Notes under the pieces: generated by a model
What the model saw: the letters and a program-made list of their open reading frames with translations, nothing else
Told to the model about the DNA's origin: nothing
Databases searched by the model: none
Made by a program: the position numbers and the translations under genes
Shown here: positions 13,918-39,155 of the stretch, piece after piece
Position numbering within the stretch: the stretch's first letter is position 1
Layout: each line of letters opens with the position of its first letter
Assembly (NCBI GenBank): GCA_029838215.1
Contig: JALGVI010000014.1
Coordinates: 1-46,688 of the forward strand
DNA: 46,688 nucleotides
Direction of reading: 5' to 3'
DNA from: Candidatus Helarchaeota archaeon
GTDB lineage: Archaea > Asgardarchaeota > Lokiarchaeia > Helarchaeales > RDOG01

Positions 13918-15243
13918 TCAAGTCAATAGTTCCATGAATGCTTCGATTCTGGTGGAGATCTGCCCGACGTTTTCGCCAAAGTTATGAAAGTTGACACCAA
14001 TCACGGGTATTTCCAGTTCATTTCTTGCTCTATCTTTTAGTAATTTGAAAGATGGCGTGATGAAACGACAACCCCAGACTTCATTAAACACGATACCGTC
14101 AGCTTTGACCAATCTTGCTTTTTCTATCCAGAAATCCATGAGATCTTCAGTTCCTTTCTCGAAATTATTCAACAGAAGATAGTCCGTATATTTCTCGATG
14201 AAATCACCATTTAGAGCAATCATGTTTGATTTGTCATAATTTGAGAAGATATCAATATAGAGCATGCATCCGCCATTTTTTTCAATGATTTGCGGAAGGG
14301 CGGGATCAAAACCGGGACTTCCTGCAATCAATATGCGGGGAATTCCTTCTTTCTTGTAGTTTCTTATCGTTCCTTTCTTCATGTTTTGCTCGATTTCAGT
14401 TAATAATAATCTTAATTTTTCATGAAAAAAATCGATATTGCTAAGAGAATCGGTATATGCGCCGTGCACGAGCAAGCTGGAAACCCAATGCAGCGGGACA
14501 TATCCCTTTCGGTAATATTTATTAAAAATTAATGCCGCCATCTGTCTAGTTTCATTGACTAGTTTCATCTTTTTTTTTGCATGGTTGAAATCGACGTTTT
14601 CATTCGTCACTTGTTCAAGAATTACGAAGAAATCTTCTAATTCTTTTCGAACAAGGTTGCGACGGTGTTCGAGCGAGTTGTCTCCATATGGTTTTTCTAT
14701 GTAGAAGACGGGCTTTTTCCTTCCAATTCTTTCATAGAATTTGGCAAAATGCAAGCAATAGTTACCTTCAAAACCGCCTAAAAGCAAGTCGAAGTATTTT
14801 TTATATTTTAGATAAACTCCATAACAAATGCGTGTTTGAATGCAGGAGTCTAGATAAAAGTTAGCTTTCTCGGATAAATTATCAAGGCTTGAAAACGTGT
14901 TTACAAATGCCTGCGAATTCATGTTTGTTTGGGCTGTATTGATTTTTGAAAGAAATGCATTTATTTGATCCCAGAAACCAATAATTAATGATAAAAGCCT
15001 GACTTTGTTAATTTTCGTGAATGCTTCCAAAAGACCTTGAAATGGAAATTCTGTGAACCGCGGTAAGAAAAACGGAATTGTTTTTTCAGAACAAAAACCA
15101 AGCTCTAAAGGTGGGAGGAATCCCGCGATGACTTTTTTTCCTTTCTTCCGGGCTGATTTGATTGTCTTGAAACCATTGATGTATTGCAATCCCATGTCTA
15201 TGATGGATTGCATCTTAAAGTCTTGAACCGTTGTTGATGGCAT
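13918..15243 (-). CDS. 2-hydroxyacyl-CoA dehydratase / benzoyl-CoA reductase-like subunit (HgdA/FldB type)
   Basis: Cys ligands LDSC, GNYC and WGCRF, plus PRILIAG and a family-typical C-terminus GQISTRIEAFME. Confidence 0.8.
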   Translation of the reverse strand: MPSTTVQDFKMQSIIDMGLQYINGFKTIKSARKKGKKVIAGFLPPLELGFCSEKTIPFFLPRFTEFPFQGLLEAFTKINKVRLLSLIIGFWDQINAFLSKINTAQTNMNSQAFVNTFSSLDNLSEKANFYLDSCIQTRICYGVYLKYKKYFDLLLGGFEGNYCLHFAKFYERIGRKKPVFYIEKPYGDNSLEHRRNLVRKELEDFFVILEQVTNENVDFNHAKKKMKLVNETRQMAALIFNKYYRKGYVPLHWVSSLLVHGAYTDSLSNIDFFHEKLRLLLTEIEQNMKKGTIRNYKKEGIPRILIAGSPGFDPALPQIIEKNGGCMLYIDIFSNYDKSNMIALNGDFIEKYTDYLLLNNFEKGTEDLMDFWIEKARLVKADGIVFNEVWGCRFITPSFKLLKDRARNELEIPVIGVNFHNFGENVGQISTRIEAFMELLT

Positions 15244-15257
15244 TTGCGAATTTTACC

Positions 15258-16406
15258 TCATAACATTTCTAAAAACGCCTCAAGTCGCGTGCGGATTTGA
15301 CCAATGCTGTTTTGAGAATAATCGCGTTCGAGATTCAGCACCGGAATGTTTTTCTTCTTCATTTTTTGCTTGAAGTAATCAGCAGAGTTTGAAAAAGAAT
15401 CGCAGAATTTAAGATAATTGTTAATTATTCCTTTGATGTTTCTTTTCTTGTAGATTTCGAGCATTTTTTCCGTTCTATAAGAATCAGGAATCATTCTTCC
15501 CGATAGATTTCGATTTAAATAACGATCTGCGAGTGCATCTAAAGGATTTGAAAAATCCACGTTAACTGGAGAGGAATAGAATTCAAACCCGGTCCAGAGA
15601 TCATCTCCAACAATAATACATCCACTATCTTCTACAATTTGAACGAAATTATCTTCGATTAGGATTCCATTTCCCGTTAAAAAAATCCTAACGCCCTTTT
15701 TAGGTGGTAATTCCGATCTTTTTACAGCATCCAGAAATTCCATAACTTTTTTCAAGTTTAAATCAGGACCATTTAAATTGAGATGATGAATCAATTTTTG
15801 AATTTCTCCCAAGGAGATTTTTGGATTCTCTCCTTGTCGATATTTGTCAATTTCTTGATAAACCGTCCTGAGTTCGTTATATAATTGAATGGACTCGATC
15901 AATTTCCGGTTTGAAATTTTTATATTTGTCTTTTTTTCGAGATATTTCTTCAACTTAATAATCTCACCATGGAAGAATTCGAATGAATTCGGTTTACTTC
16001 CGTGAGGAATTATGAACTGATATTGCTCTTTATCAAAATAGTTGTCCAAATACATGCCGGTATTCTGGACACCATTACAAAACGTGCCCGCTATCACGAA
16101 GTCCATTAACTCATAAATTTGATATGATATTTCTTCTCGTCCTTCGAAAATACCCAGATTCACGCGTTGAAAACCACAAGTGGTTTGGGACAGGTATGTT
16201 TGTCCTAGAACCATCTGTTCTTCGGTTCCACCAAGACAAAAGTGAAGGGGAATACAATCAGCAGCATGAATTATTTCGTCAGGGACGATTGAATGCGCAA
16301 TGACTCCTACGATTTTTTTTCCTTCTTCCTTGAGTCTTGTTAATTGCTCGTGAATGTCGTATAGGTCGGGTTTTTCGATTTTCATGTTCAACTTTTGCCA
16401 TTTCAT
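15258..16406 (-). CDS. 2-hydroxyacyl-CoA dehydratase / benzoyl-CoA reductase-like subunit (HgdB/FldC type)
   Basis: PDEIIHAA, TTCG, GTFCNG, LKFCDS and GQIRTRLEAFLEM. Confidence 0.88.
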   Translation of the reverse strand: MKWQKLNMKIEKPDLYDIHEQLTRLKEEGKKIVGVIAHSIVPDEIIHAADCIPLHFCLGGTEEQMVLGQTYLSQTTCGFQRVNLGIFEGREEISYQIYELMDFVIAGTFCNGVQNTGMYLDNYFDKEQYQFIIPHGSKPNSFEFFHGEIIKLKKYLEKKTNIKISNRKLIESIQLYNELRTVYQEIDKYRQGENPKISLGEIQKLIHHLNLNGPDLNLKKVMEFLDAVKRSELPPKKGVRIFLTGNGILIEDNFVQIVEDSGCIIVGDDLWTGFEFYSSPVNVDFSNPLDALADRYLNRNLSGRMIPDSYRTEKMLEIYKKRNIKGIINNYLKFCDSFSNSADYFKQKMKKKNIPVLNLERDYSQNSIGQIRTRLEAFLEML

Positions 16407-18255: not shown

Positions 18256-18678
18256 TTATTTATATTTTTTAGTGATTTCTTCGCATACTTCTTGGAATGC
18301 ATCGAATTTGGCCAGATTCTTATCCCAATCTTGAATTGTTTTTGCGAAGAATTCGGAGAATTTGGTTTTTAGTTCTTGTATTAGATTCAAGTCATTTGTG
18401 TCAGGAGGCGCGTTTAGGACTGCCATTACTTCGACATTATGATTTTGAGATATTCGAATGTGAGTTTTACTGAAAATGAGTTCAATGAGCCGTTCATCAT
18501 CAGTCATTAATTGTTGTGATGCCAGCACGGTTTGGATTCCGTTCAGGACCGTCAGGAATCCTTCTAATTGAAATCCGATATTGGTATTAAGCTTGACATT
18601 TTCGAAATGCTTGATGAATACGGGGCGACGATTCACCAAGAATATCATGCCCTTTAGGTTCAAACTTTTTAAACTCAT
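18256..18678 (-). CDS. Longin/roadblock-like protein
   Basis: Small alpha/beta protein ending FSEFFAKTIQDWDKNLAKFDAF, typical of Asgard longin-like domains. ATGA-coupled to the GTPase. Confidence 0.65.
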   Translation of the reverse strand: MSLKSLNLKGMIFLVNRRPVFIKHFENVKLNTNIGFQLEGFLTVLNGIQTVLASQQLMTDDERLIELIFSKTHIRISQNHNVEVMAVLNAPPDTNDLNLIQELKTKFSEFFAKTIQDWDKNLAKFDAFQEVCEEITKKYK

Positions 18679-19328
18679 GATTTCACCTTCACCATAATTC
18701 GAGTGACTAAATCTTCCATTGCTTCTTCAATTCCCCATCCCTCAAGTGCGGACGCGTTGAAGATTGGCGTGTCCTTAAATTGTGGCAGGAATTTTACGAG
18801 TAGATTTGTCATGTAGAAGGCGCGTCCTAGATGGTCGTTCTCGATCATTTTTTTCTGCACGATGTCTTGCTTGTTATATATGATGCAAATTGGAATTGAT
18901 GGGTCGAAGTGGGCGAGAATGTTATTGTAGAGGTCTATAAGACGTTCTTTTTGGTACATCATCGGAATGGAGCTATCGATCAGGAAGAGTATTCCGTCAG
19001 AATCAGTCGACGTGTTTCGAGAGAGGTCGTAAAATTTTTCTTGTCCGCAAGTATCGAAGATCATGCAAGCAATTTCATTTTGCTTAATCGTTCCATTTTG
19101 TTCTTTTTTGATTTTACAGTGTTCATCTAACACGACCTTACCAAAGTTCGGCATTGCTGATGTTGAAACTCGAGTATTCGTGGAGACTTCCCATGCTTCG
19201 ATTTCTTGCTCGGTGGGAGCGCGTTGTTGCTCTGAAATGAGGAAGATGTCCTTTTTGCATAGCAACTTCAAAGTTGTGGTCTTGCCAGCACCTGATGCTC
19301 CGACGAGTGAAATTTTTAGAGAAAACAT
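18675..19328 (-). CDS. Small GTPase, MglA/Arf-like with insertions
   Basis: G1 GASGAGKTT, STSAMPNFG, G3 DTCGQ, G4 NKQD and G5 NASAL. Confidence 0.88.
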   Translation of the reverse strand: MFSLKISLVGASGAGKTTTLKLLCKKDIFLISEQQRAPTEQEIEAWEVSTNTRVSTSAMPNFGKVVLDEHCKIKKEQNGTIKQNEIACMIFDTCGQEKFYDLSRNTSTDSDGILFLIDSSIPMMYQKERLIDLYNNILAHFDPSIPICIIYNKQDIVQKKMIENDHLGRAFYMTNLLVKFLPQFKDTPIFNASALEGWGIEEAMEDLVTRIMVKVKS

Positions 19329-19543: not shown

Positions 19544-20734
19544 TTAATAACCGTGTTCACGATATACTTCACGTTGGATGAGGTATTTGAGGATCTCTGT
19601 CGTGCCTCCACCGATCGGTAGGATTTTAGCATCACGTAAATATCGTTCGGACTTTTTCTCACTAGTATAACCGATGCCGCCTAAAACTTGCATTGCCCGG
19701 GATGCTACATAAACGGCTGCTTCGGAAGTGAAGACTTTTGCCATCGTGCAGATTTTTGTTGCTGCCTTATTTCCGATTTTATTGAGGGCCCTTGCGGCTT
19801 GAACCGTGAGAGCTCGTCCCGCTTCGATTCTAATTGCCATGTCAGCAATTTGGAAGCTTACGCCCTCGAAATAGCGAATTTCTTGATCAAATTGTATTCG
19901 TTCGGTTGAATATTTAAGGGCTTCTTCAAAGGCGGCTCTGGCGATACCCACACCCTGCGCAGCGATTCCAACTCGTTCGGAATTGAGTTCATCCATGAGA
20001 ATGGAAAACCCTTTGTTTTCAGGTCCTAATAAATTTTCCTTCGGAACCGCCAGGTCATTAAATCGGATGTGACCGACACGTGCGCCCCTTAAGCCCGATA
20101 ATTTATAATATTTAACGCGTTCATATCCTTTCCATTTTGTATCGATGATGAATGCACTCATACCCTTTTTTGGATGAACGTTTGGTAGTGGAGTCGTTAT
20201 TGCGAAACAACACATAAAATCGGCTTCAGTGCCATTGGTTATGAACCGTTTTTCACCATTTATGATGTAGTAATCGCCATCCTTAACAGCTCGTGTTTCC
20301 ATTCCCGCTGTGTCCGAACCAACTCTGGGTTCTGTGATACCAATGCAACCAATTTTTTCGCCTTTGATAATGGGTGTCAAATATTTCTCTTTCTGCTCAT
20401 CCGTGCCAAAACGATGAATAGGCATTCCAAAAAGCGATATATTTGCAATGCGTGATAATTCGAATGCTTCATTAATTCGTGCACACTCTTCTGCCACGAT
20501 GCAATCTGCCACGATGCCCTGTCCCGTACCGCCCCACTCGGGTGGATGTAATGGACCAAGAAATCCCTTCTTGCCCATCTCCCGCATTAAAATGCGAATT
20601 GGTTCATACGAATTCATTTTTTCAATTTCATCATCAAATGCTCGAATTCGTTCCTCTGCAAATGCTTGAATTTCAGTCTTAAATTCTAATTCTTCTTTTG
20701 AATAAAGTGCCTTAAGTGATTCATCCCCAGACAT
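19544..20734 (-). CDS. Acyl-CoA dehydrogenase
   Basis: GITEPRVGSD, NGEKRFITNG, FDQEI and IGGGTTEI. Confidence 0.96.
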   Translation of the reverse strand: MSGDESLKALYSKEELEFKTEIQAFAEERIRAFDDEIEKMNSYEPIRILMREMGKKGFLGPLHPPEWGGTGQGIVADCIVAEECARINEAFELSRIANISLFGMPIHRFGTDEQKEKYLTPIIKGEKIGCIGITEPRVGSDTAGMETRAVKDGDYYIINGEKRFITNGTEADFMCCFAITTPLPNVHPKKGMSAFIIDTKWKGYERVKYYKLSGLRGARVGHIRFNDLAVPKENLLGPENKGFSILMDELNSERVGIAAQGVGIARAAFEEALKYSTERIQFDQEIRYFEGVSFQIADMAIRIEAGRALTVQAARALNKIGNKAATKICTMAKVFTSEAAVYVASRAMQVLGGIGYTSEKKSERYLRDAKILPIGGGTTEILKYLIQREVYREHGY

Positions 20735-24105: not shown

Positions 24106-25812
24106 TTATTTTGCTTCGATGGCAATTCGTTTCGGATTATGGATTTCGTTTTCTTGGACGGGATAGTTGTTTAGATTTACGGTATAATGCATTCGCCATT
24201 GATCTTTAATGTAGTCGAGTGTTTTTTGCTCAATTGAATCGGGAAGTTTTACATCTACCCATAGCGTGTCGCCAAGAAGAGTTTTGACGATTTCACCATC
24301 CTTGACTACGATTTCCCCATTCTTGATGGTATATGCCGCTCTACTAAATGCCTTCTCGATTTTCCTTGGATCTTTTTCCTCGGGGTTAATGTCATAGATA
24401 GCAACGTCTCCGACAGCACCAACACCTAGATGTCCTCTATCGGTCAAGCCCATTGTTCTTGCGTTTCCTGCACGTGTAATGATTGCGATTTCTTCCAGGG
24501 TATATTCCCGATCGATATCGTTAAGTGTTGTTTTTTGCTTTGCGTTATCGTGGACTTTTGCAAGCATTTCTTCCCGGGCTTTCTTGCTCATTAACCAAGC
24601 GATGACCAATGGATAATTCTCAAAGGGACCGCCGTTTGGATGATCCGTGGTCATGGATGTTCGCCATGGATCTTTCAAGAGAAGGATCAATTCGAGTCCG
24701 ATTGCCCATTGAACTGCATTAACGGGATTTTTTGGAGCGAAGACATATGGAACGACACCAGAACCGCATTCGGATTCAATTTGTCCATTAATCCACTTCA
24801 TTCCGCCTTTATTACCCCATGGAGAAATTGCGCCGAGATGTTGGAGATTGAACTCCCATGGACCATCACCAGTCATTGTCGTCGTATCGCCAAAAATTAC
24901 CTGCCCTATGTCAAGAGTCACGTGTTCATTTGAATTTACATATTCGGCGAGCATCGCAGCGTCGGATTTGAAGTCCTTCCAATTGGTACCACCATATGCG
25001 TTGAATTGCGTGTGCGTATAATGAAGCACGTTCTTTCGTCCATTCGTGCCTTTAAATTCCTTAACGAGATCCCAAGTATCCCGAGTGATAGCTGAGCAAC
25101 CAGGATGTCCAAGCTGGTTTCCGTGCACGTGAATGGTGTGCGGAAGGTTTAATCGTTCGTTAGCTTGGCAGAGCATGCTCACGACTTTTCGTGGAGTAAC
25201 TTCCCAGTTAAGAACCGTGTCATCGAGACCGTCAACGTTTTTGCCCCAGCCCCAGTTCTCAACACCGCCAGGATTGACGATTTTAACCGCATACCCTTTG
25301 GTTGCACGTAAAAGCCATGCGATATAGCCAGTGAGCAAGTCAAGATCACCTGCCGCAATGGCATCTAGAACAAACCAATTATTCCCAAATACGGGCATTG
25401 CGAGCTTGTCAATAATGGGAATGTCTTTAAATTCTTCGTGAGTATGTCGGGCTTTTAGAGGAGGCATTGCGGGTTCTACAACGGTAGTATAACCCATTTG
25501 CGCATATTTGTAACCAGTAACAAAGGTAGATGGAACCGAATACCCTGTTCCAGATCGAGTTATGCTCGTTTTAGCGATGGGCTGCCTTCGGTGATCTTCG
25601 GGGCGGAATACTCTCCCACTATTTACCTTTGAACCTGCAATGTGGGAATGAATGTCCACGCCACCGGGAAATACGACTTTACCGCTTGCATCGATGACCT
25701 GTCCACTATTGCCTTCAACAATTCGTCCATTTTCAATGGTAATATCCATTTTATCCTTGATCTTGTTGATGGGGTCAATTACAAGCCCATTTTTGATCGT
25801 GATTCTAGCCAC
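24106..25812 (-). CDS. fwdA: Formylmethanofuran dehydrogenase subunit A
   Basis: PGGVDIHSHIAG, GYTTVVEPAMPP, VKIVNPGG, HTIHVHGN and TTDHPNGGPF. Confidence 0.96.
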   Translation of the reverse strand: MARITIKNGLVIDPINKIKDKMDITIENGRIVEGNSGQVIDASGKVVFPGGVDIHSHIAGSKVNSGRVFRPEDHRRQPIAKTSITRSGTGYSVPSTFVTGYKYAQMGYTTVVEPAMPPLKARHTHEEFKDIPIIDKLAMPVFGNNWFVLDAIAAGDLDLLTGYIAWLLRATKGYAVKIVNPGGVENWGWGKNVDGLDDTVLNWEVTPRKVVSMLCQANERLNLPHTIHVHGNQLGHPGCSAITRDTWDLVKEFKGTNGRKNVLHYTHTQFNAYGGTNWKDFKSDAAMLAEYVNSNEHVTLDIGQVIFGDTTTMTGDGPWEFNLQHLGAISPWGNKGGMKWINGQIESECGSGVVPYVFAPKNPVNAVQWAIGLELILLLKDPWRTSMTTDHPNGGPFENYPLVIAWLMSKKAREEMLAKVHDNAKQKTTLNDIDREYTLEEIAIITRAGNARTMGLTDRGHLGVGAVGDVAIYDINPEEKDPRKIEKAFSRAAYTIKNGEIVVKDGEIVKTLLGDTLWVDVKLPDSIEQKTLDYIKDQWRMHYTVNLNNYPVQENEIHNPKRIAIEAK

Positions 25813-26151
25813 TTTGATATCCTTCCAATATTTTTGTCGTGATGAGCGTGAATTTTAACGACTTTTAATTTCAAATTTGAAGAGAGATTTATTAATTTAA
25901 TCGTATGGTTTCGTCCTGCAATTAAAGTATCGATAAATGGCGATAAGCGACTTGTAATAATAAAATCACGTTAATATCGTGAAGTATCGGCTTGGAAAAA
26001 ATTCCTACCGTGATTTTAAAAAAAAAGAACCTTAAGGAGAGGTATTTCTTTATCATCAAGTTGGATTAATAAAAATTTTTGACATTTCTCCGAGAATTTA
26101 CTAGATGAGATTCATCCTGTTTCTCCATTGCTTATTTTTAACCAAAACTCA

Positions 26152-26222
26152 AAAAACCGGTTTCAATGATTTAGTCAAACGCCCCTTGCATGAGGGGTGG
26201 TTACTTCATGACTCAGGTTTTT
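26152..26222 (-). promoter_or_regulatory. Candidate 3'-UTR SECIS element for the Sec-containing hdrA
   Basis: Begins 9 nt after the stop. RNA: AAAAACC UGAGUC AUGA AGU AAC CA CCCCU CAUGCA AGGGG C GUU UGAC UAAAUCAUUGAAACC GGUUUUU. It forms nested stems with an AUGA...GA motif. Folded by eye only. Confidence 0.65.
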
Positions 26223-26230
26223 CACGAAGG

Positions 26231-28195
26231 TCATCCCTGCTTGACTTCTTTTATGAGTCCGTCGAGATATGCTTCGATTTGCTTGTTTCGATAGCTTCTT
26301 AGCGTCATTGCATTATTTTTACAAACAGATGCACATGCACCACAACCGCGGCAAGTTATTTCATCGACTTCAATCTTGTTTTCAAGGAGAGAAATTGCGT
26401 TATATGGACATACTTCAATACAATTACCGCATCGGCTGCATTTTTCCAAATCCACGATAGCGCGCACGAGTTCGATTTCAAACAGGCCGGCAGACATCGG
26501 AATTGCCGCTGAAGATGCGGCACCCTTGGACATTGCCACCGTGTCAGCAACACTATGTGGTCCTTGAGCAGTTCCTGCTAAGTAGATACCGGGTACTTTA
26601 GTTCCAATGGGATCTAACCTTGAATGAAATTCTTTAATGAAACCATCGGGACTTCTTTCAAGCCGAAGAAGATTTGCAACATTAATGGTTCCTTCAGAGG
26701 GTTCCATTGCAACGGAAAGGACGACAAGATCGGCTTCAACACGACGATACTTGTTCATTAGCGTATCTTCGATGCGTACCAATAGGTTTTTCGTATATTG
26801 ATTTTCTTCAATTCTTGCAAAATTTCCCCGGATAAACCTGATTCCTTGCAGTCGGGCACGTCTAAAGTATTCTTCATACTCCTTGCCAGGCGTTCGCATG
26901 TCAATATAGCAGATTGTCACTTCAGTATTGGGGTCATGTTGCTTGAGGAGGGCAGCATTCTTTAATGCAACCAAACAGCAGACACCGGCACTACAATATG
27001 GATTGGTTTTAATGCTTCGTGAACCAACACATTGAATCATTAACACTCGTGTAGGTGGATTTTCATCGGATATTCTTCGAAGTTCACCGAATGTCGGTCC
27101 ATTAGGGGCAAGGATTCTCTCAAGTTGAAGTTGTGTTATGACATTTTCAAATTGCCCATACCCGTATTCACCAGTTGGATCAAATATCTTGATTCCTGTT
27201 GCAACTATGATCGTGCCAACGTCTATTTCGATTATTTCGTCTTTTTGGTTGAAATCAATGGCATTTTCATTACATTCCCTGACACACAATCCACAACGAA
27301 TGCATTTATCGCCATCAATCGTATATTTTAATGGGACCGCCTGAGCGAACAGTGCATATATTGCCTTGCGCGTATCCAGCCCGCAATTAAATTCATTTGG
27401 AACCACCACTGGGCAGACGGGAGAACATGCCCCACAACCCGTGCATTTTTGTTCGTCAATGAATCGTGCTTTTCTTTTAATTTTTACGTTAAACTCTCCA
27501 ACGTGTCCGGATACACCAATGACTTCACTATAGGCAAATAACGTGATTTTTGGATGGCTTGCGGCTTCGAGCATCAATGGACCCAATATTCAAATACAAC
27601 AATCGTCAGTGGGAAAGATACGATCGAGTTTTGCCATGATGCCACCGATGGTTGGAGATTTCTCGATGAGATAGACATCATAGCCTTGATTTGCTAGATC
27701 TAGGGCACTTTGTATGCCGGCGATTCCTCCACCAATGATGAGAGTTTTAGGAAGAACTTTCAGATGCTTGCGAGGAATTTTCTCAATGAAATGCACCTTT
27801 CTTACAGCAGCCCGCAATAGATCTTCGGCTTGTTCTTGTGCTTCTTCTGGTTCTTTCATGTGAACATACGTGCAATGTTCCCGTATATTTACGAATTCTA
27901 GATAGCTTTGATCGAGACCGCTATCTTCAAGAACCTTCCTGAAGACTTTTAAGTGAGTTTTTGGAGTGCAGGCAAGAACAAGCACGCGATTTATACTATC
28001 TTCCTTGATCTTGCGAGATATCAAAGCGGCTCCTGCTTCAGTACACATTGATATGTATTCCTCAGATACAATGACGTTTGGTAGCGTTTTTCCGAATTCA
28101 ACTAATGCAGTGCAATCAACGAAATCAGCAATATTTTTACCTCAGTTACAAACAAAAATTCCTATGCGAATTGAATTATCTTCCGTTCTAGACAC
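26231..28195 (-). CDS. hdrA: Heterodisulfide reductase subunit A, 654 aa, with two in-frame UGA codons read as selenocysteine (U18, U202)
   Basis: One continuous frame from GTG 28195. It reads IGIFVCN-TGA(28144-28142)-GKNI and FPTDDCCI-TGA(27592-27590)-ILGPLM, both at conserved HdrA Cys positions. It also has GGGIAG, ferredoxin motifs and QCVGSR. Confidence 0.9.
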
Positions 28196-28640
28196 CACCT
28201 CCAGTTGGATTGGCAATAACTTTTTTATTAAACGGAGAAGGACCGAGTTCACGCAATTTTTTAGTGAATTCAATAATTAATTGTTGAAACTTTTGTCCTT
28301 CGCCTGCGCTCACCCATTCTAATCGCAATCTATCTTTTTCAATACCGAGAATTTCAAAAGATTTGATTAGATTTTCCAAGCGTTCTTTGGTTTGAAGATT
28401 TCCGCTTATGTAATGACAATCACCAATATGACATCCTGCAACAAGGACTCCATCGGCTCCATCTTCGAATGCCTGCAGGACAAATACGGGATCTACCCGT
28501 CCGCTACACATGACACGAATGATCCTAATGCTAGGAGGGTATTGGAACCTGCTTAGTCCCGCCAAATCCGCTCCTGCATATGAGCACCAATTGCACAGGA
28601 ATGCCACGATTAATGGTTCTTGCTTGTCTTCAGAGATAAT
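28188..28640 (-). CDS. mvhD: Methyl-viologen-reducing hydrogenase delta subunit MvhD (Cys form); start probably ATT 28640 or ATC 28637, otherwise GTG 28607
   Basis: AFLCNWCSYAGADL, RVMCSGRVDP, GCHIGDCHY and WVSAGEG. Confidence 0.92.
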   Translation of the reverse strand: MISEDKQEPLIVAFLCNWCSYAGADLAGLSRFQYPPSIRIIRVMCSGRVDPVFVLQAFEDGADGVLVAGCHIGDCHYISGNLQTKERLENLIKSFEILGIEKDRLRLEWVSAGEGQKFQQLIIEFTKKLRELGPSPFNKKVIANPTGGGV

Positions 28641-28653
28641 CTCAACTCCAATT

Positions 28654-31600
28654 CTATGGCATGAAAACGCTTTTTATCATTTCAGTAATCTGTTTAGTCT
28701 CAAAGTGATGTTGTGATATTGCCCGAACGGGGCATCTAGCAACGCAAGTCCCGCATCCCTTGCATAATGCTGGATTTATGCGACTCTCAGTAGTAAAGAA
28801 AACTCCTTCTTGAAATTGTTTCTCCACTTCAACGAGACTGATAGCACCATACGGACATACTTCCACGCAAGTACCACATCCGATACAAACTTCGGGATCA
28901 ACATATGACGTGATTCCTTCAACTTCGATTTCGTCCTGTGATAATAAACGGGCCGCACGGGCAGCGGCACCACTTGCTTGAGCCATGCATTCAGGTATTA
29001 GCTTTGGGAATGAAGCCGAACCACATAGGAAGATGCCTTCTGTTGCAAAATCTAGAGGTCGTAATTTTACATGGGCTTCAAGAAAGAATGGGGGATTGTT
29101 TTTCAATAATGGTACTTTTAATAAAGCGGATAGTTTTTCAGCATCCGGATTTGGAATCATCGGCGTGGCAAGTACCACGAGATTTGCTGAGATTGCAACT
29201 TTCTCATTATTTAAGATGTTATTTACTTCAATGCTAATGCTTCCGTCATCTAGTGTTGATATACGTGGAGGATTATCAAGAGAGTATCTTATAAAAGTTG
29301 CATTTTCCCGAGACTTGCGATAAAATGTTTCATTCTCTTTTCCTGCTGCCTGTATGTCTCTATACAGAACATAAATATTCGCATCAGGGTTTAATTCTTT
29401 TAGAATATTAATATTCTTAAGGCTTACCTTGCAACAAATATTTGAGCAATAAGTAAAAAGACCTTCCTTTTGACGTGAATTATAACATAAATAGAATACG
29501 ACATTCGGATTTTCGGAACCATTTGTTGGAATTACACCAGTTTGTAAAAAAGCAATACGCTCTTCCAAGTCAGCAAGCGTAAGTATGTTGGGATTCTTTT
29601 TATATTGGTCAGGTACTAATTCCCGAGCACCTATTGCAACAATTATGGCTCCAGATTTAATCGTTTCAACCTTTTCGTTTTTTAGTTTAATATCGGTTTC
29701 AAAATTTCCCACGTATCCTCTAATGTCTAAAATCGTGGATGATTCATGAACGTAAATGTACTTATCTTTCATGACACGCGTGAAAAAACTTTGAATCAAT
29801 TCTTTGGTTGTTTCTCCAGTATATAGCTTGTAAAAATGCCGTAAAAAGCCACCGATTTTTAATTCATTACTGATCAGATGAGTTTCAAATCCTTGTTCTG
29901 CCAAATCCAAAGCAGCCCGACAGCCAGAAATTCCTCCACCAATTACCACTGCTTTTTTCGTTATCGGTATCTTTATTTTTTGAAGAGGCTCTAAAAGGCG
30001 TGCTTTTGCAATGCCGATTCGTACTAAATCCTTTGCTTTTTCCGTTGCAGCCTTGCGATCATTCATGTGAACCCAGGAACATTGTTCTCTCAAGTTAACG
30101 AATTCAAACAAGTATGGATTCAAACCACCTTCCTTGCAAGTTTCTGCGAATAACGGTTCATGTGTTCGAGGCGTGCAGGAAGCAACGATAAATCTATTGA
30201 GTTCTTTTTCTTGGATGAGTTGCTTTATTCGTTCCTGAGTGTCAGAACTACAAGTGTATAAATTAGATTCGGCAAATTCCACGTTTGGTAGCGTTTTTGC
30301 GTATTGCGCAACTTCTTCGGAATCTAAAAAACCAGCAATGTTTGAACCACAATGGCAAACCATTATTCCAATTCGAGGGGGATCATCAATCTTCACGGGT
30401 TTCTCAGGTATCAGGTATTCTTTCTTTTTAGCATATTTTCCGCGCTCGGAGCTAAGAAGCCCTGAGACTTTTGCCGCAGCAGCACTTGCATTTGCTACGG
30501 ATTCAGGAATGTCACGAGGACCCGTCGCGCAACCACATAACATGATTCCCATTTTGGTGCTTTTTAACGTGGCATAATTCGAATGTTCTTTAAAAAAGCC
30601 ATATTCGTCGAGTTCAATTCCAAGAACCCTTGCTAAGTCCTTGTTTTTTGGAGAGGGAATTAATGCTGTTGCTAAAACAACAAGATCAACAATCATTTCA
30701 CGGCTTTCGCCAGAATCAATATCCTCATAATAAAGAATTAAATTTTTAGTATCGGGATCTTCTTCAATATAAGATACTTGACCGTATATATATTTCACGC
30801 CGTATTCTGATTGAGCTCGCATGATGTATTCATTAAATCCCTTGCCATATGCCCTAATATCGTTTCGAAAAATGATGCACTCGGCATGAGGATCATGTTC
30901 TTTTGTTATTATTGCTTCTTTTGCCAAGTACATGCAACACACGGAAGAACAATACGGAACACCTTTGTGAGGGTTTCGGGATGCCACGCACGATAAGAAT
31001 GCAATTTTATGAGCATGTTTCCTGTCTGATGGTCGCACGATTTGACCTTGGGTCGGACCAGACGCGCACATGAGACGTTCGTATTGCATGCTAGAAATGA
31101 CATTATCGAATTCATGTCCATATTGCGGTAATTTTGAAATATCAAATAGTTCTATACCCGTGGCAACAATCAATGCGCCTACATTTAACCTGAACTGTTT
31201 TTTCTTTTGTCTGAAATTAATGGCATTAGCTTGGCAGACTTTCGAACAGGCACCACAAACTTTGCCATCAGAATTCAGATACAAGCAATGTTCGGCATCA
31301 ATGGAATATACAGGGGGAACAGCTTGCGGGCTTGGAATGAAGATTGCACAACGAGTGCCCAACTCTTCGTTAAACTCATCGGGAATGCCGCGGACAGGGC
31401 AAATTTTAGCGCAATCACCACAATTCTTGCAAATTGATTCCTCAACATATCTCGGTTTTTTTTCGATGGTAACTTCATAATTGCCCATGGTGCCACGTAA
31501 TCGTGTTACTTCGCAGTTTGTCAGGAGCTCAATGTTAGGATGGCGATAGATTTCAACTATTTTTGGTGCTAGAATGCAAATAGAACAATCGTTGGTGGGA

Positions 31601-31758
31601 AATGTTTTATCAAGCTGTGCCATTTTTCCACCAATATTTGGGCGTGAGTCAAGGAGATAAACCTTGAAACCGAGGTCCGCAAGATCCAAGGATGCTTGAA
31701 TCCCTGCTACACCACCTCCAATGACCAATACAACACCAAATTTTGTAACTTCACTCAT
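28654..31758 (-). CDS. hdrA: Large HdrA-like flavoprotein (1034 aa, two FAD modules, multiple Fe-S clusters)
   Basis: GGGVAG, FPTNDCSIC, internal IGIMVCHCG, a second GGGISG and a C-terminal 2x[4Fe-4S] domain. Confidence 0.92.
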   Translation of the reverse strand: MSEVTKFGVVLVIGGGVAGIQASLDLADLGFKVYLLDSRPNIGGKMAQLDKTFPTNDCSICILAPKIVEIYRHPNIELLTNCEVTRLRGTMGNYEVTIEKKPRYVEESICKNCGDCAKICPVRGIPDEFNEELGTRCAIFIPSPQAVPPVYSIDAEHCLYLNSDGKVCGACSKVCQANAINFRQKKKQFRLNVGALIVATGIELFDISKLPQYGHEFDNVISSMQYERLMCASGPTQGQIVRPSDRKHAHKIAFLSCVASRNPHKGVPYCSSVCCMYLAKEAIITKEHDPHAECIIFRNDIRAYGKGFNEYIMRAQSEYGVKYIYGQVSYIEEDPDTKNLILYYEDIDSGESREMIVDLVVLATALIPSPKNKDLARVLGIELDEYGFFKEHSNYATLKSTKMGIMLCGCATGPRDIPESVANASAAAAKVSGLLSSERGKYAKKKEYLIPEKPVKIDDPPRIGIMVCHCGSNIAGFLDSEEVAQYAKTLPNVEFAESNLYTCSSDTQERIKQLIQEKELNRFIVASCTPRTHEPLFAETCKEGGLNPYLFEFVNLREQCSWVHMNDRKAATEKAKDLVRIGIAKARLLEPLQKIKIPITKKAVVIGGGISGCRAALDLAEQGFETHLISNELKIGGFLRHFYKLYTGETTKELIQSFFTRVMKDKYIYVHESSTILDIRGYVGNFETDIKLKNEKVETIKSGAIIVAIGARELVPDQYKKNPNILTLADLEERIAFLQTGVIPTNGSENPNVVFYLCYNSRQKEGLFTYCSNICCKVSLKNINILKELNPDANIYVLYRDIQAAGKENETFYRKSRENATFIRYSLDNPPRISTLDDGSISIEVNNILNNEKVAISANLVVLATPMIPNPDAEKLSALLKVPLLKNNPPFFLEAHVKLRPLDFATEGIFLCGSASFPKLIPECMAQASGAAARAARLLSQDEIEVEGITSYVDPEVCIGCGTCVEVCPYGAISLVEVEKQFQEGVFFTTESRINPALCKGCGTCVARCPVRAISQHHFETKQITEMIKSVFMP

Positions 31759-31771
31759 CGTTCATACCCAA

Positions 31772-32956
31772 CTAGTACACGAGATACATGGCTTTAGCCA
31801 CGAAATCTGCCAAATCAATAATATTCATGTTAAATTTATGCTGTCCTTTATTTTCATATTCTTTTTCAAGGCACGTAAGGTGCATTTCACATTTAGGACA
31901 GGTCGTGATGAAATCGTTCAAGTCGATTATTTGTTCCGCTTCAATCAAGCGATTCGTGCGTAAGTATTTTGTATACACATTGCAATTATTCCAAGCACTC
32001 ACACCACAACATTGTGCGTTTCGGCGGTTATGTTTCATTTCTACCAATTTCACGCCAGGAATTGCACGTATGACTTCTCGAGGTGCTTCGTATACACCCA
32101 ATTGCCGTCCCATTCTACAAGGATCATGATATGTTACAACACGCGGATATTCATATTTAAACTCCAATTCGCCTGACTTTATTTTTTCGTTCAAAAATTC
32201 TGCAAATGAGATTATTTTGAAATCAAGCTTTCCGTGATATCGTTCATAATCCAATTTCATTGTTCTATAGCATTCTGCACAAGTCGTTATGACAGTCTCT
32301 GCTCCTGAATCAGATATCGCCTTAATATTTTGCACGGATAGTTTTTCAAAAGTCTCTACATCACCTTGCCAAAGCGAATCATGTCCGCAACATTTTTCAT
32401 CGTTTAAAATCATGGGTTTAATTCCCATCTTATTCAGGAGCCGAAGAGAGCTTTCGATGGTTCTATTTAAATTAACGCCAATTTGACGGGCGTGTGATTC
32501 TAACGATATTAAAGGAATGCACCCCATGAAAAAAAGAATATCGCTTTCGCCCGGTTTTGAAAACTCTAGATTTTTCGGAATGACATCCCATTTATTTGGA
32601 TGGACGTTTTCATTGGCCATTAATCGACTCAAAGCAGTAAAATATCCAAAATGAGCCTCCTTAAATCCCTTTTGACGTGCCATTTCATGTGAATTTATGC
32701 GACAATTTAAAATAAAATCCGAGAACGTGATGTCATTTGGACAGTGCACGGAACATCGGTCGCAAGTTAAACACCACCACGTCTTATGCGTGATCTTTTC
32801 ATTCCACAAAAAGTCTGAAGCGATGTACCGGGGTGAGAAATTTGGAATGAGTTCACCCAATGGACATGAATCACTACACTTGCCACATTGATAGCAAGTT
32901 GCCACCAGATCACGCATATCCTTTGAAGTATTTTTACGTGACGATATTTCAACCAT
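31772..32956 (-). CDS. HdrD-like Fe-S oxidoreductase (HdrC-type 2x[4Fe-4S] plus two CCG domains)
   Basis: CYQCGKCSDSCP, CLTCDRCSVHCP, KCCGH, YHDPCRMGR, CCGVS and TTCPKC. Confidence 0.88.
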   Translation of the reverse strand: MVEISSRKNTSKDMRDLVATCYQCGKCSDSCPLGELIPNFSPRYIASDFLWNEKITHKTWWCLTCDRCSVHCPNDITFSDFILNCRINSHEMARQKGFKEAHFGYFTALSRLMANENVHPNKWDVIPKNLEFSKPGESDILFFMGCIPLISLESHARQIGVNLNRTIESSLRLLNKMGIKPMILNDEKCCGHDSLWQGDVETFEKLSVQNIKAISDSGAETVITTCAECYRTMKLDYERYHGKLDFKIISFAEFLNEKIKSGELEFKYEYPRVVTYHDPCRMGRQLGVYEAPREVIRAIPGVKLVEMKHNRRNAQCCGVSAWNNCNVYTKYLRTNRLIEAEQIIDLNDFITTCPKCEMHLTCLEKEYENKGQHKFNMNIIDLADFVAKAMYLVY

Positions 32957-33635: not shown

Positions 33636-34910
33636 TCAGAGAAGCTTGTATAAGCTTCGAATTCCTCGACCAAGAATATATTGTTGAATTTGGCGCGTTC
33701 CGCCGACAATTTCTTGAATACGGGTGATGCCCAAGAGATCTTGCATTAAAGTATTGTCGGATACTCCGGCTCCACCCATCAGGTTGGCGCACTCATATGC
33801 TACTCTTTCAGCTAACATTGAAGCACGGTACTTGAACATTGAAGCATTCAACTCAAACATTTGGGCCATGTCCTTGGGGATTTTTCCGTTGAATTTTTCA
33901 TGTTTTTCATCATATTTTTCAGATAATTTTAATAATCCCAGCGTAATCGTGCCAACCTGAGACCAAAGGTCTGCAAGCGTAAAGCCAACACCCTGAAAGT
34001 TTAGAATGGGCTTACCAAATTGTAGTCGCATGTTACTATATATCATTGCATGACTTAAAGCTCCCCAGCACTCGGCAATGTTTTCGAATGCAATTCCAAT
34101 CCGTTCCATTGTAAGACCCATGAAAAGGTTAGGGATTCCACGTCCTGCAGGTCCCAGCACGTATTCTTTTGGGACCTTAATGTTTTTTAGTTCTTCTTTT
34201 CCAATCCAAATGCGGGGCACCCACGGAATTTGGACACGTTCGACATTCCAACCATCCCAGCTGGTATTGATAAGGAATTGTCCCATTGTTTCGCCTTTAT
34301 TTTGTTCCAAACAAGCGTAAGCAACTGCCCATTTTGCTTTAGGACCATTGGTGCTAAAGATCTTGGTGCCGCTAATGCTATAGCTCCCATCGTCATGTTG
34401 TTCGCACGTTGAAACCATATGTGTTGCATCCGAACCTCTCTCAGGTTCAGTAATAAGAATACATCCCAGTGCTTGCCCAGTAACCAGATCCTTTAGTGCT
34501 TCTAATACTTCAGATCGACCTTGATGATGTGATTGACAGGGATTGATCGCAAGAGTCGTTGCGCCGATTGACATGGAAAATTGAGTATCAAACATGTCCA
34601 CGGCTAAATAGCGCATCATTTCCATTGCCAGCCCCCATTCCTTGTAGTTCTGATCGATCTCATCAAACTTGTGGAACCTGCTAATGTAACCCTTGGCACC
34701 AAAATCCGGAAAGTAGGAATAAATGTCCTCCGTGTGATCAATGTTCTTGGTTTTTTCATAATTTACACAAAAATCTTGAACTTGTTTCAAAAAATTCATT
34801 TGTTCTTCGCTACAAATCGCTTTTAGATTGATGTTGACGATCTTGTAACGGTTTTCTAAATTCATTTTTTCAAGAATTTCATCCTTGACGGCTTGACACT
34901 TGAATCTCAT
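33636..34910 (-). CDS. Acyl-CoA dehydrogenase
   Basis: ITEPERGSDA, GTKIFSTNG, QFGKPI and IVGGTRQIQ. Confidence 0.93.
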   Translation of the reverse strand: MRFKCQAVKDEILEKMNLENRYKIVNINLKAICSEEQMNFLKQVQDFCVNYEKTKNIDHTEDIYSYFPDFGAKGYISRFHKFDEIDQNYKEWGLAMEMMRYLAVDMFDTQFSMSIGATTLAINPCQSHHQGRSEVLEALKDLVTGQALGCILITEPERGSDATHMVSTCEQHDDGSYSISGTKIFSTNGPKAKWAVAYACLEQNKGETMGQFLINTSWDGWNVERVQIPWVPRIWIGKEELKNIKVPKEYVLGPAGRGIPNLFMGLTMERIGIAFENIAECWGALSHAMIYSNMRLQFGKPILNFQGVGFTLADLWSQVGTITLGLLKLSEKYDEKHEKFNGKIPKDMAQMFELNASMFKYRASMLAERVAYECANLMGGAGVSDNTLMQDLLGITRIQEIVGGTRQIQQYILGRGIRSLYKLL

Positions 34911-36669: not shown

Positions 36670-37440
36670 CTATTTTTCATTTTTTTTATGCAAAATTTCT
36701 CTTTCTGAATGAATGGCAGATCCTGGCATTACTCCTTTTGGACAGACGATATTACAGGCAAAGATTCTCTCACACGCAGGAACGGCATCTTTTCTTGCAA
36801 TTCGTTCTAAAATGATATCTTTGTGTTCTTTGGTTGACCGGGTGTCAGCAATAAAACGAAAACCTTTAGCAAGGGCTGCTGGACCGAGATAATTTCGTTT
36901 TTTTCCAGATACGGGACACGTCCAGCATAGACCACAGAGGATGCAATAAATCAAGTGCTCAAAAACCTTTACATCTTCAGCAGATTGTCGGCTTTCTTGT
37001 CCTTCATCTCTCCATTGTCGTGTTAAAAATGGCTTGACTTCACGATAAAAATCCCAGAATGGATTCATGTCAACGATCAGATCCTTTATGACATCCATGT
37101 TTGGAAGAGGTTCAATGAGAATTTCGCTTTCTTCATTCCAATCAGGGATGTCTCCAAATACGATTTCAGGAATTCGGGATGGAATTGCCTCGTTCGCAGA
37201 TTGGACTTGAAGGTTGCAAGCCAATCGGGGATATTTATTAATTGTCATGCCGCAAGAGCCGCATATCGCACCTCGGCAAGCATATCTAAAGGACAAGGTC
37301 GAATCAAGATGATCTTGAATGTAAAATAGGGCGTCGAGAATCGTCATCCCGGGTGATAGAGGCACGGCAAATCGTTCATAATGGGGTTCCTTTTCATCTG
37401 CGTCCTTTCGATAGACAAGAAAGACTTTTTCTTTGGACAT
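36670..37440 (-). CDS. sdhB: Succinate dehydrogenase/fumarate reductase Fe-S subunit
   Basis: ACRGAICGSCG, RLAC, CILCGLCWTCP and CNIVCPKG. Confidence 0.93.
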   Translation of the reverse strand: MSKEKVFLVYRKDADEKEPHYERFAVPLSPGMTILDALFYIQDHLDSTLSFRYACRGAICGSCGMTINKYPRLACNLQVQSANEAIPSRIPEIVFGDIPDWNEESEILIEPLPNMDVIKDLIVDMNPFWDFYREVKPFLTRQWRDEGQESRQSAEDVKVFEHLIYCILCGLCWTCPVSGKKRNYLGPAALAKGFRFIADTRSTKEHKDIILERIARKDAVPACERIFACNIVCPKGVMPGSAIHSEREILHKKNEK

Positions 37441-39152
37441 TAATATTTCCTCTCCTTTACGGGGAAAAATCCCAATTTTACGGGTTTTGTTTGCATTTGG
37501 AGACCATCTCTCGTTCGTGATACTAATGAATGAACTAAATAATCGTCATCATTTCGGTTGGGAAAATCTATTCGAAAATGGGCTCCGCGACTTTCTTTTC
37601 GCCACCGTGCCGCAAATGCCGTAACTTCCGTAATCTCAATCATGTTACGGAGTTCTAATGCCCTTATTAACCCAAAATTAAATTTTCTCGAATCCGTAGA
37701 GACTCTGACATCTTCGAAATTCTTACGTAGCTTGTTGAGAGCTGCCACGGCGAATTTTAATTTACTTTCTTCTCTAAAAACGCCAACATGCTCATCCATT
37801 ATGGATTTCATTTCCTGCCTGATTATAACGGGTTTTTCTCCAGTGCTTGAATTCCATTTCTTGAACAGGTTTTCTGTTGCGTTTACCACCCGATCTTCTG
37901 CTTGCTTGACTTTATCCGAAGCAGTTATTTGTCTTAATCCTTGTTTCAGAAGGGTTCTTCCCACGAGTCGACCAAAGACGATAGTCTCTAGAAGAGAATT
38001 TCCACCGAGCCTGTTTGCACCATGTACCGAGATGCAGGAGGTTTCGCCAATTGCCCACAATCCCTTGAAAGGTGTTTCCCCCAATTCACCACCATATTTT
38101 GAGGCGATGCCTCCCATGCTATAGTGTTGTGCAGGTTGAACGGGAATCGGTTGCTCAATGGGATCTATCCTCGCAAAATTAATGGCAATCTCCCGAATAC
38201 CAGGAAGTCGTTCTTTGATTTTTTCGGTGCCTAAATGGGTCAGATCAAGATGAACATAATTGTTTTCAAACCCACGGCCTTCTAAAATCTCCGTTTCGAT
38301 GGCACGAGCAACAATGTCGCGGGGTGCGAGTTCCGCGGACTTTGGAGCGACCTTTTTCATGAATCGTTCGTTTTTATTATTATATAAATGGCCGCCTTCT
38401 CCCCTAGCGCCTTCCGTGATGAGTATGTTCGTGCCATATAAAGTGGTTGGATGGAATTGAACGAATTCACAGTCTTGCATGGGCACGCCCGCCCGGAATG
38501 CTGCACCCAGACCATCTCCAGTATTGATGAGTGCATTTGTTGACCGTTTAAAAATCCGTCCGAAACCGCCGGTCGCAAGGATTATCGTTCCCGTGCGAAA
38601 TATGACTAATTCCCCTGAGTTCATGTCCAAAGCAATGAGCCCGATGATGGCATCATCTGCCGTTATTAAATCAATAAGGAAGTATTCTTCGAAAAAGATC
38701 ACTCCTAAACGCACGCACTGCTCAAAGACAGTATGCAATAAAGCGTGACCAGTTCTATCACCAGCATAGCAGGTTCTAGGAAAGCCAGCCCCTCCAAATG
38801 GTCTCTGTGCTATGAGACCACTTTCCAATCGTGAAAATGGAACACCCATACTTTCTAATTCAATTACGATTTTAGGTGCTTCTTCACATAGTATCATGAC
38901 TGCGTCTTGATCTGCTAAATAATCCGAGCCATAGATCGTGTCGTAGGCATGTCGTTTAACAGAATCTTCTTTTCCTGCTTCAGTATTTCCCAAAGAAGCG
39001 TTTATTCCACCTTGTGCAGCCCCAGAGTGGCTTCGCACGGCAAAAACTTTTGAAATAATTGCAACGGAATGCTCATTACACAGTTCTAAAGCTGCACGGA
39101 GACCACTAAGGCCACCGCCAACAATAACAGCATCAAATTCTTCAATTTTCAG
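37440..39152 (-). CDS. sdhA: Succinate dehydrogenase/fumarate reductase flavoprotein subunit (570 aa, extended to CTG 39152)
   Basis: The in-frame N-terminal FAD motif VIVGGGLSG lies upstream of the ORF-track start. Also RSHSGAAQGG, QFHPT, HYSMGG and HGANRLGGNSL. Confidence 0.93.
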   Translation of the reverse strand: MKIEEFDAVIVGGGLSGLRAALELCNEHSVAIISKVFAVRSHSGAAQGGINASLGNTEAGKEDSVKRHAYDTIYGSDYLADQDAVMILCEEAPKIVIELESMGVPFSRLESGLIAQRPFGGAGFPRTCYAGDRTGHALLHTVFEQCVRLGVIFFEEYFLIDLITADDAIIGLIALDMNSGELVIFRTGTIILATGGFGRIFKRSTNALINTGDGLGAAFRAGVPMQDCEFVQFHPTTLYGTNILITEGARGEGGHLYNNKNERFMKKVAPKSAELAPRDIVARAIETEILEGRGFENNYVHLDLTHLGTEKIKERLPGIREIAINFARIDPIEQPIPVQPAQHYSMGGIASKYGGELGETPFKGLWAIGETSCISVHGANRLGGNSLLETIVFGRLVGRTLLKQGLRQITASDKVKQAEDRVVNATENLFKKWNSSTGEKPVIIRQEMKSIMDEHVGVFREESKLKFAVAALNKLRKNFEDVRVSTDSRKFNFGLIRALELRNMIEITEVTAFAARWRKESRGAHFRIDFPNRNDDDYLVHSLVSRTRDGLQMQTKPVKLGFFPVKERKY

Positions 39153-39155
39153 ATA

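Follow-up and report, generated by a model that had tools for sequence, protein, structure and literature searches.

The 46,688-nucleotide (nt) stretch analysed here, referred to as the window, is contig JALGVI010000014.1 (positions 1 to 46,688) of the Candidatus Helarchaeota archaeon assembly GCA_029838215.1, and corresponds to contig C12 of a 170-contig, 3.6-Mb metagenome-assembled genome (MAG) with a completeness of 94% and an estimated contamination of 6%. Four co-oriented genes on its minus strand encode, in order, an HdrD/TfrB-like CCG protein, a double HdrA-like protein, MvhD and a heterodisulfide reductase subunit A (HdrA) whose reading frame contains two internal UGA codons. On the basis of sequence comparison, it is proposed with a probability of about 93% that this hdrA is a functional Asgard gene in which both UGAs are read as selenocysteine (Sec), at residues 18 and 202, and that recoding is directed by a selenocysteine insertion sequence (SECIS) located at the gene's own stop codon (Table 1).

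Translation of the window gives an hdrA frame that runs from 28195 to 26231 on the minus strand and consists of 654 sense codons and a terminal TGA at 26233–26231. The frame is interrupted twice, both times by TGA, and contains neither frameshifts nor other stops. GTG at 28195 is the likely start, but another GTG stands in frame at 28198, so that the true start may differ by one or two codons; the 5′ end of hdrA shares 8 nt with the 3′ end of the upstream mvhD, which stops at TAG. Codon 18 is the second position of a C-x-C motif (VCN-U-G) in the N-terminal domain, and codon 202 is the canonical HdrA selenocysteine site, in the motif FPTDDC-C-I-U-IL. A mechanical list of open reading frames (ORFs) renders the gene as two fragments of 451 amino acids (26231..27586) and 152 amino acids (27590..28048), from which the first 49 codons are absent. 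A preliminary description of this DNA had noted these fragments and the missing codons, and had proposed a single frame across the region; both points hold, although the strand had been left unstated. The paralog motifs that it quoted are also real, and both occur in the 1034-residue double HdrA-like ORF, with FPTNDCSICIL at residue 53 and IGIMVCHCGSNI at residue 463.

The protein obtained by reading through both TGAs matches Pfam models for Pyr_redox_2/FAD at residues 150–238 and for pairs of Fer4 domains at residues 244–313 and 580–630 (four Fer4 stretches). In phmmer searches against PDB sequences, residues 10–652 align to solved HdrA chains, the N-terminal domain included: 9sfi_A (E 1.9e-214), 5odc_A (E 2.5e-210), 8rvu_a (E 2.2e-193) and 7bkb_A (E 6.2e-169). 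Homology to characterised HdrA is full length, and the expected domain set is present, namely the N-terminal Cys-rich domain, the thioredoxin-reductase-like domain (GxGxxG) that binds flavin adenine dinucleotide (FAD), the inserted ferredoxin and the C-terminal ferredoxin. Codon 18 lies opposite Cys13 of 5odc_A, the second Cys of VCHCG. Codon 202 lies opposite Cys197 of 5odc_A and opposite the non-standard residue X of 9sfi_A, a Methanococcus maripaludis-type chain. The NCBIfam models HdrA2 (783 bits, cut-off 1100) and HdrA (662 bits, cut-off 1400), which contain a fused MvhD tail, scored below their equivalog cut-offs; the protein is thus placed as a member of the HdrA family, and CoM-S-S-CoB is not assignable as its substrate by homology.

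Thirty genomes of relatives were searched with stop codons read through, and they contained dozens of HdrA paralogs with two to five in-frame TGAs as well as TGA-free paralogs. An ortholog alignment was made from the 20 highest-ranking loci, each from a different genome and the query locus among them; amino acid identity to the query is 51–65%. All 20 loci have TGA at the codon-202 column, and at the codon-18 column 18 have TGA and two have Cys; some loci carry additional TGAs where Cys51 and Cys76 align. Residues 19–201 are 51–64% identical to the query and residues 203–654 are 51–65% identical. As identity is equal on either side of each TGA, all segments are under the same selection. A distant set of 80 bacterial and archaeal homologs (Chloroflexota, Bacillota, Thermoplasmata and others) has Cys in 75 and TGA in five at the codon-202 column; at the codon-18 column, 67 have Cys, four TGA and one Thr, with a gap in eight. 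The genome itself encodes at least three further hdrA paralogs, each with two TGAs. The two codons therefore show what is expected of a selenoprotein gene, an in-frame UGA that is aligned to Cys in homologs and kept as UGA in orthologs. Judged from these alignments, the match of both TGAs to conserved Cys sites is far beyond chance.

Two individual loci differ in their number of TGAs. A Promethearchaeota MAG (L043, RDOA01000101.1) encodes an HdrA with four in-frame TGAs, in the columns of residues 18, 51, 76 and 202, and a Clostridia MAG (L056, JASKKH010000003.1) encodes a bacterial HdrA with TGA at the residue-202 column only.

Genes for Sec synthesis and insertion are found in the same genome. 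A tRNA-Sec(UCA) gene with a CUUCA anticodon loop was recovered by Infernal at 52.9 bits, above the gathering score. It adjoins the gene for SepSecS (498 bits) on contig C165, and the gene for EFSec/SelB (282 bits) lies just upstream of both. The SelD gene contains one in-frame TGA. A PSTK-like gene, which covers positions 1–243 of the 249-position model at 160.6 bits (cut-off 290.5), is probably PSTK. SelA was not found in the genome, as expected of archaea. By this gene content, Sec synthesis is assigned to the archaeal/eukaryotic route, with tRNA-Sec, EFSec, SepSecS and SelD present and PSTK probable.

The tRNA-Sec, SepSecS and EFSec genes on C165 form a compact cluster, in which tRNA-Sec directly follows SepSecS. 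The tRNA-Sec gene itself (L001:1501-1612; G000:C165:48883-48994) is 112 nt long and carries a 25-nt insert immediately 3′ of the UCA anticodon. This insert is probably an intron at or near the canonical site, whereas the intron of the Lokiarchaeum tRNA-Sec described in the literature is 31 nt long and lies in the T-loop. ARAGORN reported no tRNA in L001 and so missed this gene, which the Infernal tRNA-Sec model recovered.

Downstream of hdrA lies a gap of 418 nt. An Rfam scan of positions 25500–28700 at E values up to 10 returned no SECIS family, only chance matches resembling snoRNAs or miRNAs, and Rfam contains no matching Loki-type SECIS model. A first motif scan, which demanded a 3′ GA, missed the local element; it was found once the rule was set to GA or AA. 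In the loci of relatives, the motif scan gave a canonical lokiSECIS composed of AUGA, a 9-bp stem, an 11–13-nt loop starting with A's and then GA. Most class-level relatives (L021, L022, L025–L035) have this element 420–500 nt downstream of hdrA, past a downstream vhuD, and the same-order relatives L017–L020 have it directly at the hdrA stop.

A covariance model, R1, was built from 17 aligned SECIS elements of relatives, with the query locus left out. In this alignment, each of the nine stem pairs varies at both of its positions and pairing holds in 92.8% of cells, a covariation count that is partly circular because the elements were chosen by a pairing rule. The best R1 match in the window (both strands, filters off) is at 26237–26192 on the minus strand, with 20.2 bits and an E value of 0.01; the runner-up scored 13.6 bits and has no stem. 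The predicted element has AUGA at 26234–26231, followed by C and by an 8-bp stem (26229–26222 paired with 26211–26204) that closes a 10-nt loop beginning with AAAA (26221–26212). Past the stem stand U and then AA at 26202–26201. Its sequence is CUUCGUGA in the 5′ stem, AAAACCUGAG in the loop and UCAUGAAG in the 3′ stem. When folded alone, the segment forms exactly the predicted hairpin; the minimum-energy fold of the 111-nt 3′ untranslated region does not show the SECIS hairpin and is no better than that of shuffled sequences (z −0.97).

With its AUGA core 5′ of an 8-bp stem plus a C/U mismatch, its 10-nt loop that starts with AAAA and its position near the 3′ end of the gene, the element agrees with the lokiSECIS pattern, in which the stem has roughly 9 bp and the apical loop about 11 nt with adenosines first. 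The 3′ GA of the GA/GA kink-turn quartet is replaced by AA. This AUGA_AA arrangement is a published variant from Lokiarchaeia hdrA and frhD genes (PMC11227280), and the missing GA thus does not exclude the element from the lokiSECIS class. The UGA stop of hdrA is also the UGA of the AUGA core, as it is in L017 and L018, and overlap of this kind has been reported for Loki selenoprotein genes (PMC4989117). A SECIS stands at the equivalent place in L017–L020 and in the paralog on contig C144 of the same genome. Both layouts in fact occur in this genome, as the SECIS of the C144 paralog lies 40 nt after hdrA and that of the C110 paralog 464 nt downstream, past vhuD. In a genome-wide search, R1 was scored on 150 of 6034 candidates and gave two matches with E ≤ 1, at the hdrA locus and at C1:38297. 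It missed the SECIS elements of the C144 and C110 paralogs, and is therefore of no use as a census of the selenoproteome. About 180 nt downstream of selD (G000:C55:1349, minus strand), there is a further AUGA hairpin with AA instead of GA on its 3′ side, which suggests that the AUGA_AA core is used more than once in this genome.

A second small hairpin, CCCCU/AGGGG, follows the predicted SECIS. In every hdrA with a private SECIS (the present gene, L017–L019 and G000:C144 at about 12350), such a hairpin occurs 2–4 nt past the SECIS, and its stem varies between CCCCU/AGGGG, CCCG/CGGG, CCGAAU/AUUCGG and CUCC/GGAG. A run of U's lies 3′ of it near 26155. This second hairpin might contribute to the SECIS platform or act as a terminator.

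The same hairpin features in the strongest alternative, which concerns the identity of the SECIS and would leave the gene a di-Sec hdrA. The working element might instead be a type-II-like structure with canonical GA, formed by AUGA at 26209–26206, CCCCU/AGGGG as an apical hairpin and UGAC at 26177–26174. Such a structure would have the canonical AUGA...UGA pair and an unpaired AA preceding the mini-stem, and the minimum-energy fold of the 111-nt region does contain the CCCCU/AGGGG hairpin. However, no more than about 3 bp would be left for the helix that joins core and bulge, and the AUGA at 26209–26206 is not conserved, as L019 and C144 lack it in the corresponding arm. All relatives keep the stop-adjacent AUGA, a stem of 8–9 bp and an A-rich loop of 10–13 nt; R1, which was trained on relatives only, selects the stop-adjacent hairpin rather than this structure; and CCCCU/AGGGG makes better sense as a conserved second hairpin in its own right. 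The type-II-like structure is consequently considered improbable, and the stop-adjacent Loki-type hairpin is retained as the putative SECIS.

Insertion of Sec and of Cys at a UGA codon are indistinguishable by sequence alone, which leaves some room for decoding of the two codons as Cys, Trp or Gly through a changed code or near-cognate read-through. This is rated very improbable. TGA terminates 9 of the 28 long ORFs in the window, as well as hdrA itself, and hdrA is the only substantial TGA-joined frame in 46.7 kb; by these counts, TGA is not reassigned in this organism. Furthermore, a dedicated, complete Sec system and a SECIS are present, and codon 202 is a Sec site that has been seen experimentally in Methanococcus HdrA.

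The conserved TGAs, the equal identity of the segments and the use of TGA as an ordinary stop together make an altered code, a pseudogene and sequencing error very unlikely. A pseudogene with two nonsense mutations, which fragmentation by standard gene calling might suggest, is effectively refuted by the comparative evidence, as orthologs in as many as 20 genomes share the two TGAs at protein identities of just 51–65%, the three segments are equally conserved, and frameshifts or other stops are absent. Sequencing or assembly errors in place of TGT or TGC, conceivable in a MAG, have a negligible probability, given that the independent assemblies of many relatives have TGA at the same columns and that three other paralogs in this genome carry two TGAs each.

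Several points nevertheless weigh against the proposal of a di-Sec hdrA with a SECIS at its stop. The SECIS match is modest, and its E value rises to about 0.8 when scaled to the whole genome. The element has AA rather than GA in its 3′ core and a stem of 8 bp rather than 9 bp, and its folding energy is not better than that of shuffled sequences (z −0.77). The PSTK score is under the curated cut-off, and the contigs with the Sec machinery are tied to the hdrA contig through binning, in a MAG with some estimated contamination. The roles suggested below for Sec18 and Sec202 are drawn from papers on methanogens that partly disagree, one describing a ligand of the HA3 cluster and others a C-x-x-C/U pair.

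Set against these points, the conserved TGAs, the machinery genes, the SECIS match and the full-length HdrA homology support the di-Sec HdrA that the preliminary description had claimed. Its placement of both TGAs on conserved Cys positions is borne out by near-invariant columns that hold Cys or TGA in homologs. Two checks that it had suggested also came out in its favour: the recoded protein, when aligned to HdrA homologs, matches solved HdrA chains along its full length, and the genome search for tRNA-Sec, SelB, SelD, PSTK and SepSecS found the machinery, with PSTK probable. For annotation, hdrA should be treated as intact, that is, as one 654-residue selenoprotein gene and neither a pseudogene nor three fragments. 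The same advice applies to at least three other hdrA paralogs with two TGAs in this genome.

Table 1. Positions of hdrA, its recoded codons, the predicted RNA elements and the associated genes in the window.
Feature	Position	Strand	Description and evidence
hdrA coding sequence	26231..28195	-	654 codons, GTG start at 28195, UGA stop; Pfam and phmmer against PDB
UGA codon 18 (predicted Sec18)	28142..28144	-	Context FVCN-TGA-GKNI; TGA/Cys column in homologs
UGA codon 202 (predicted Sec202)	27590..27592	-	Context FPTDDCCI-TGA-ILGP; TGA/Cys column in homologs
Putative SECIS, Loki-type (eukaryote-like), AUGA_AA variant	26192..26237	-	R1 match, hairpin fold, relatives
Second small hairpin	26182..26197	-	CCCCU/AGGGG, 6-nt loop; position shared with L017, L018, L019 and C144
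mvhD (FlpD family), Cys form	28188..28607	-	Pfam FlpD, 181.7 bits; directly upstream of hdrA, translational overlap
Fused double HdrA-like protein	28654..31758	-	1034 amino acids; module motifs
HdrD/TfrB-like protein	31772..32956	-	Fer4 dicluster and two CCG domains; Pfam CCG, 95.3 bits; first gene of apparent operon

The genes upstream of hdrA encode its likely partners, with mvhD directly upstream and the CCG-domain HdrD/TfrB-like gene further upstream in the same cluster. MvhD has the motifs CNWC and GCHxGDC, whereas the Sec-type VhuD of class-level relatives has CWKU and GUYxGEC; the vhuD gene downstream of hdrA in those relatives carries two TGAs at the positions of the mvhD Cys motifs. 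An upstream mvhD is shared with L017, of the same family, only; L018–L020 have a private SECIS and no adjacent mvhD. In the double HdrA-like protein, module 1 keeps FPTNDCSIC (DCxxC, with the Cys197 equivalent) and lacks the N-terminal domain, and module 2 has the N-terminal VCHCG domain and lacks the FPTxDC motif. The fused HdrA proteins of anaerobic methanotrophic archaea (ANME) and Moorella show a like complementarity of modules, but the module order is reversed in the 1034-residue protein. The HdrD/TfrB-like protein scored 128 bits against NCBIfam TfrB, under the cut-off of 385. No separate hdrB or hdrC occurs in the window, and a search of the genome, which is 94% complete, gave no MCR alpha.

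Among the genes that flank the Hdr cluster are two for a 2-hydroxyacyl-CoA dehydratase D component and two for an acyl-CoA dehydrogenase (13918-16406, minus strand; 19544-20734; 33636-34910, minus strand), and its physiological context may be electron-bifurcating acyl-CoA metabolism. An SdhA/TfrA-like flavoprotein gene at 37440-39155 (minus strand) has its FAD-binding GGGLSG motif upstream of the first ATG, GTG or TTG, and from the preceding stop its frame reads YLKIEEFDAVIVGGG; this gene probably has a non-standard start codon, or else would be truncated by the caller. A small GTPase of the Ras/Arf/Roc family (217 amino acids) is encoded at 18675-19328 (minus strand) and is followed by a 140-amino acid ORF with no Pfam match. 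The two form an Asgard-type signature gene pair. The GTPase, like the best named relatives, which are MAGs labelled 'Promethearchaeota archaeon', is in keeping with an Asgard archaeon from the class Lokiarchaeia.

It is proposed that the hdrA mRNA is translated through both UGAs as Sec to give a 654-residue flavin/iron-sulfur protein. Sec-tRNA would be supplied by PSTK, SepSecS and SelD and delivered by EFSec. The Loki-type SECIS hairpin, which begins at the stop, would direct Sec insertion at UGAs 1.36 kb and 1.9 kb upstream, and the core UGA inside the SECIS would serve as the translation terminator. A lokiSECIS acts on distant UGAs and not on a UGA that is too close (PMC4989117), and this minimal-distance rule would account for termination at the core UGA together with Sec insertion at the remote ones. 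The four-gene cluster probably encodes a flavin-based electron-bifurcating thiol/disulfide oxidoreductase.

By analogy with methanogen HdrA, Sec202 would be the U of a C-x-x-U pair beside the bifurcating FAD, at the interface between the flavin and the mobile arm, and Sec18 would belong to the N-terminal domain, which is mobile and houses HA3, the low-potential [4Fe-4S] cluster that acts as a shuttle. With one selenol beside FAD and the other near HA3, both would be expected to accelerate electron transfer at these sites or to tune it. One study describes Cys197 as a ligand that the partner protomer contributes to the [4Fe-4S] cluster of the N-terminal domain (PMC9012536). Cryogenic electron microscopy (cryo-EM) of the M. 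maripaludis complex placed Sec197 in a bond to a cysteine between cluster A3 and FAD (PMC13518236), and in M. marburgensis a ligand of unknown identity was seen held by the equivalent Cys202/Cys205 pair, with FAD on one side and the MvhD cluster on the other (PMC13580544). HA3 is regarded, in PMC13580544 among other sources, as the shuttle cluster that accepts the low-potential electron.

The predicted Sec sites of this gene (18 and 202) and of relatives with three or four Sec (18, 51, 76 and 202; L043, for example) correspond exactly to invariant cysteines of the mobile N-terminal domain and to the Cys197 equivalent. This is suggestive, and the extra Sec sites of Asgard HdrA may not be scattered. 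In one structural reading, the Cys197 equivalent completes the coordination of HA3 from the partner protomer. These enzymes might then have a low-potential cluster with selenolates as some or all of its ligands, or else a relay of two Sec residues that links FAD with HA3. This idea is speculative and rather unlikely. If it were true, selenium would tune the low-potential branch of flavin-based electron bifurcation. Placement of Sec on the N-terminal cysteines and on the C-x-x-C/U pair touches the bifurcation question raised by the 2026 cryo-EM papers.

Sec-containing HdrA was already known from Methanococcales and Lokiarchaeota, as had correctly been stated in the preliminary description (PMC4989117, PMC13518236). 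In 2016, Mariotti et al. reported Lokiarchaeota HdrA with up to four Sec residues at five positions, a shared long-range SECIS and a eukaryote-like SECIS structure (PMC4989117). A 2024 survey by Huang et al. counted 1439 selenoproteins in Asgard archaea and found HdrA in 58% of the genomes that use Sec (PMC11227280). Multi-Sec HdrA and the Asgard selenoproteome are thus already published, and the hdrA described here adds one more gene of that sort.

Compared with methanogen enzymes, the protein is about 50% identical over its full length to the VhuD-associated HdrA of M. maripaludis and Methanocaldococcus (PDB 9sfi; PMC13518236), with the same four domains and with Sec197 at the identical column in a DC-x-x-U motif. 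The methanogen protein has a single Sec, an archaeal-type SECIS and CoM-S-S-CoB as substrate, whereas the gene described here has a second Sec codon in the N-terminal C-x-C, a Loki-type SECIS and other operon partners, in a genome where no MCR was found. In Methanothermococcus thermolithotrophicus (PDB 5odc) and in bacteria, HdrA is all-Cys, with Cys13 and Cys197 where Sec18 and Sec202 are predicted here.

The closest likeness is to the multi-Sec HdrA of Loki and other Asgard archaea, which shares the family, the Sec near residue 200, further Sec at conserved Cys positions, a eukaryote-like AUGA SECIS acting from the 3′ region over about 2 kb, and archaeal Sec machinery. Published Loki loci invariably have a Sec-containing vhuD after hdrA, with one SECIS past vhuD that serves the pair, and their hdrA ends in UAA or UAG. 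At the present locus, in contrast, a Cys-type mvhD precedes hdrA and vhuD is missing from the downstream side, and hdrA ends in UGA and has a SECIS of its own with an AA core. These departures in gene order, SECIS ownership, stop codon and core are modest variations. They soften the published rule by which Loki hdrA invariably relies on a downstream vhuD for its SECIS and has a stop other than UGA, and they indicate that in this lineage hdrA can own a private AUGA_AA SECIS, with UGA doubling as the stop, independently of vhuD.

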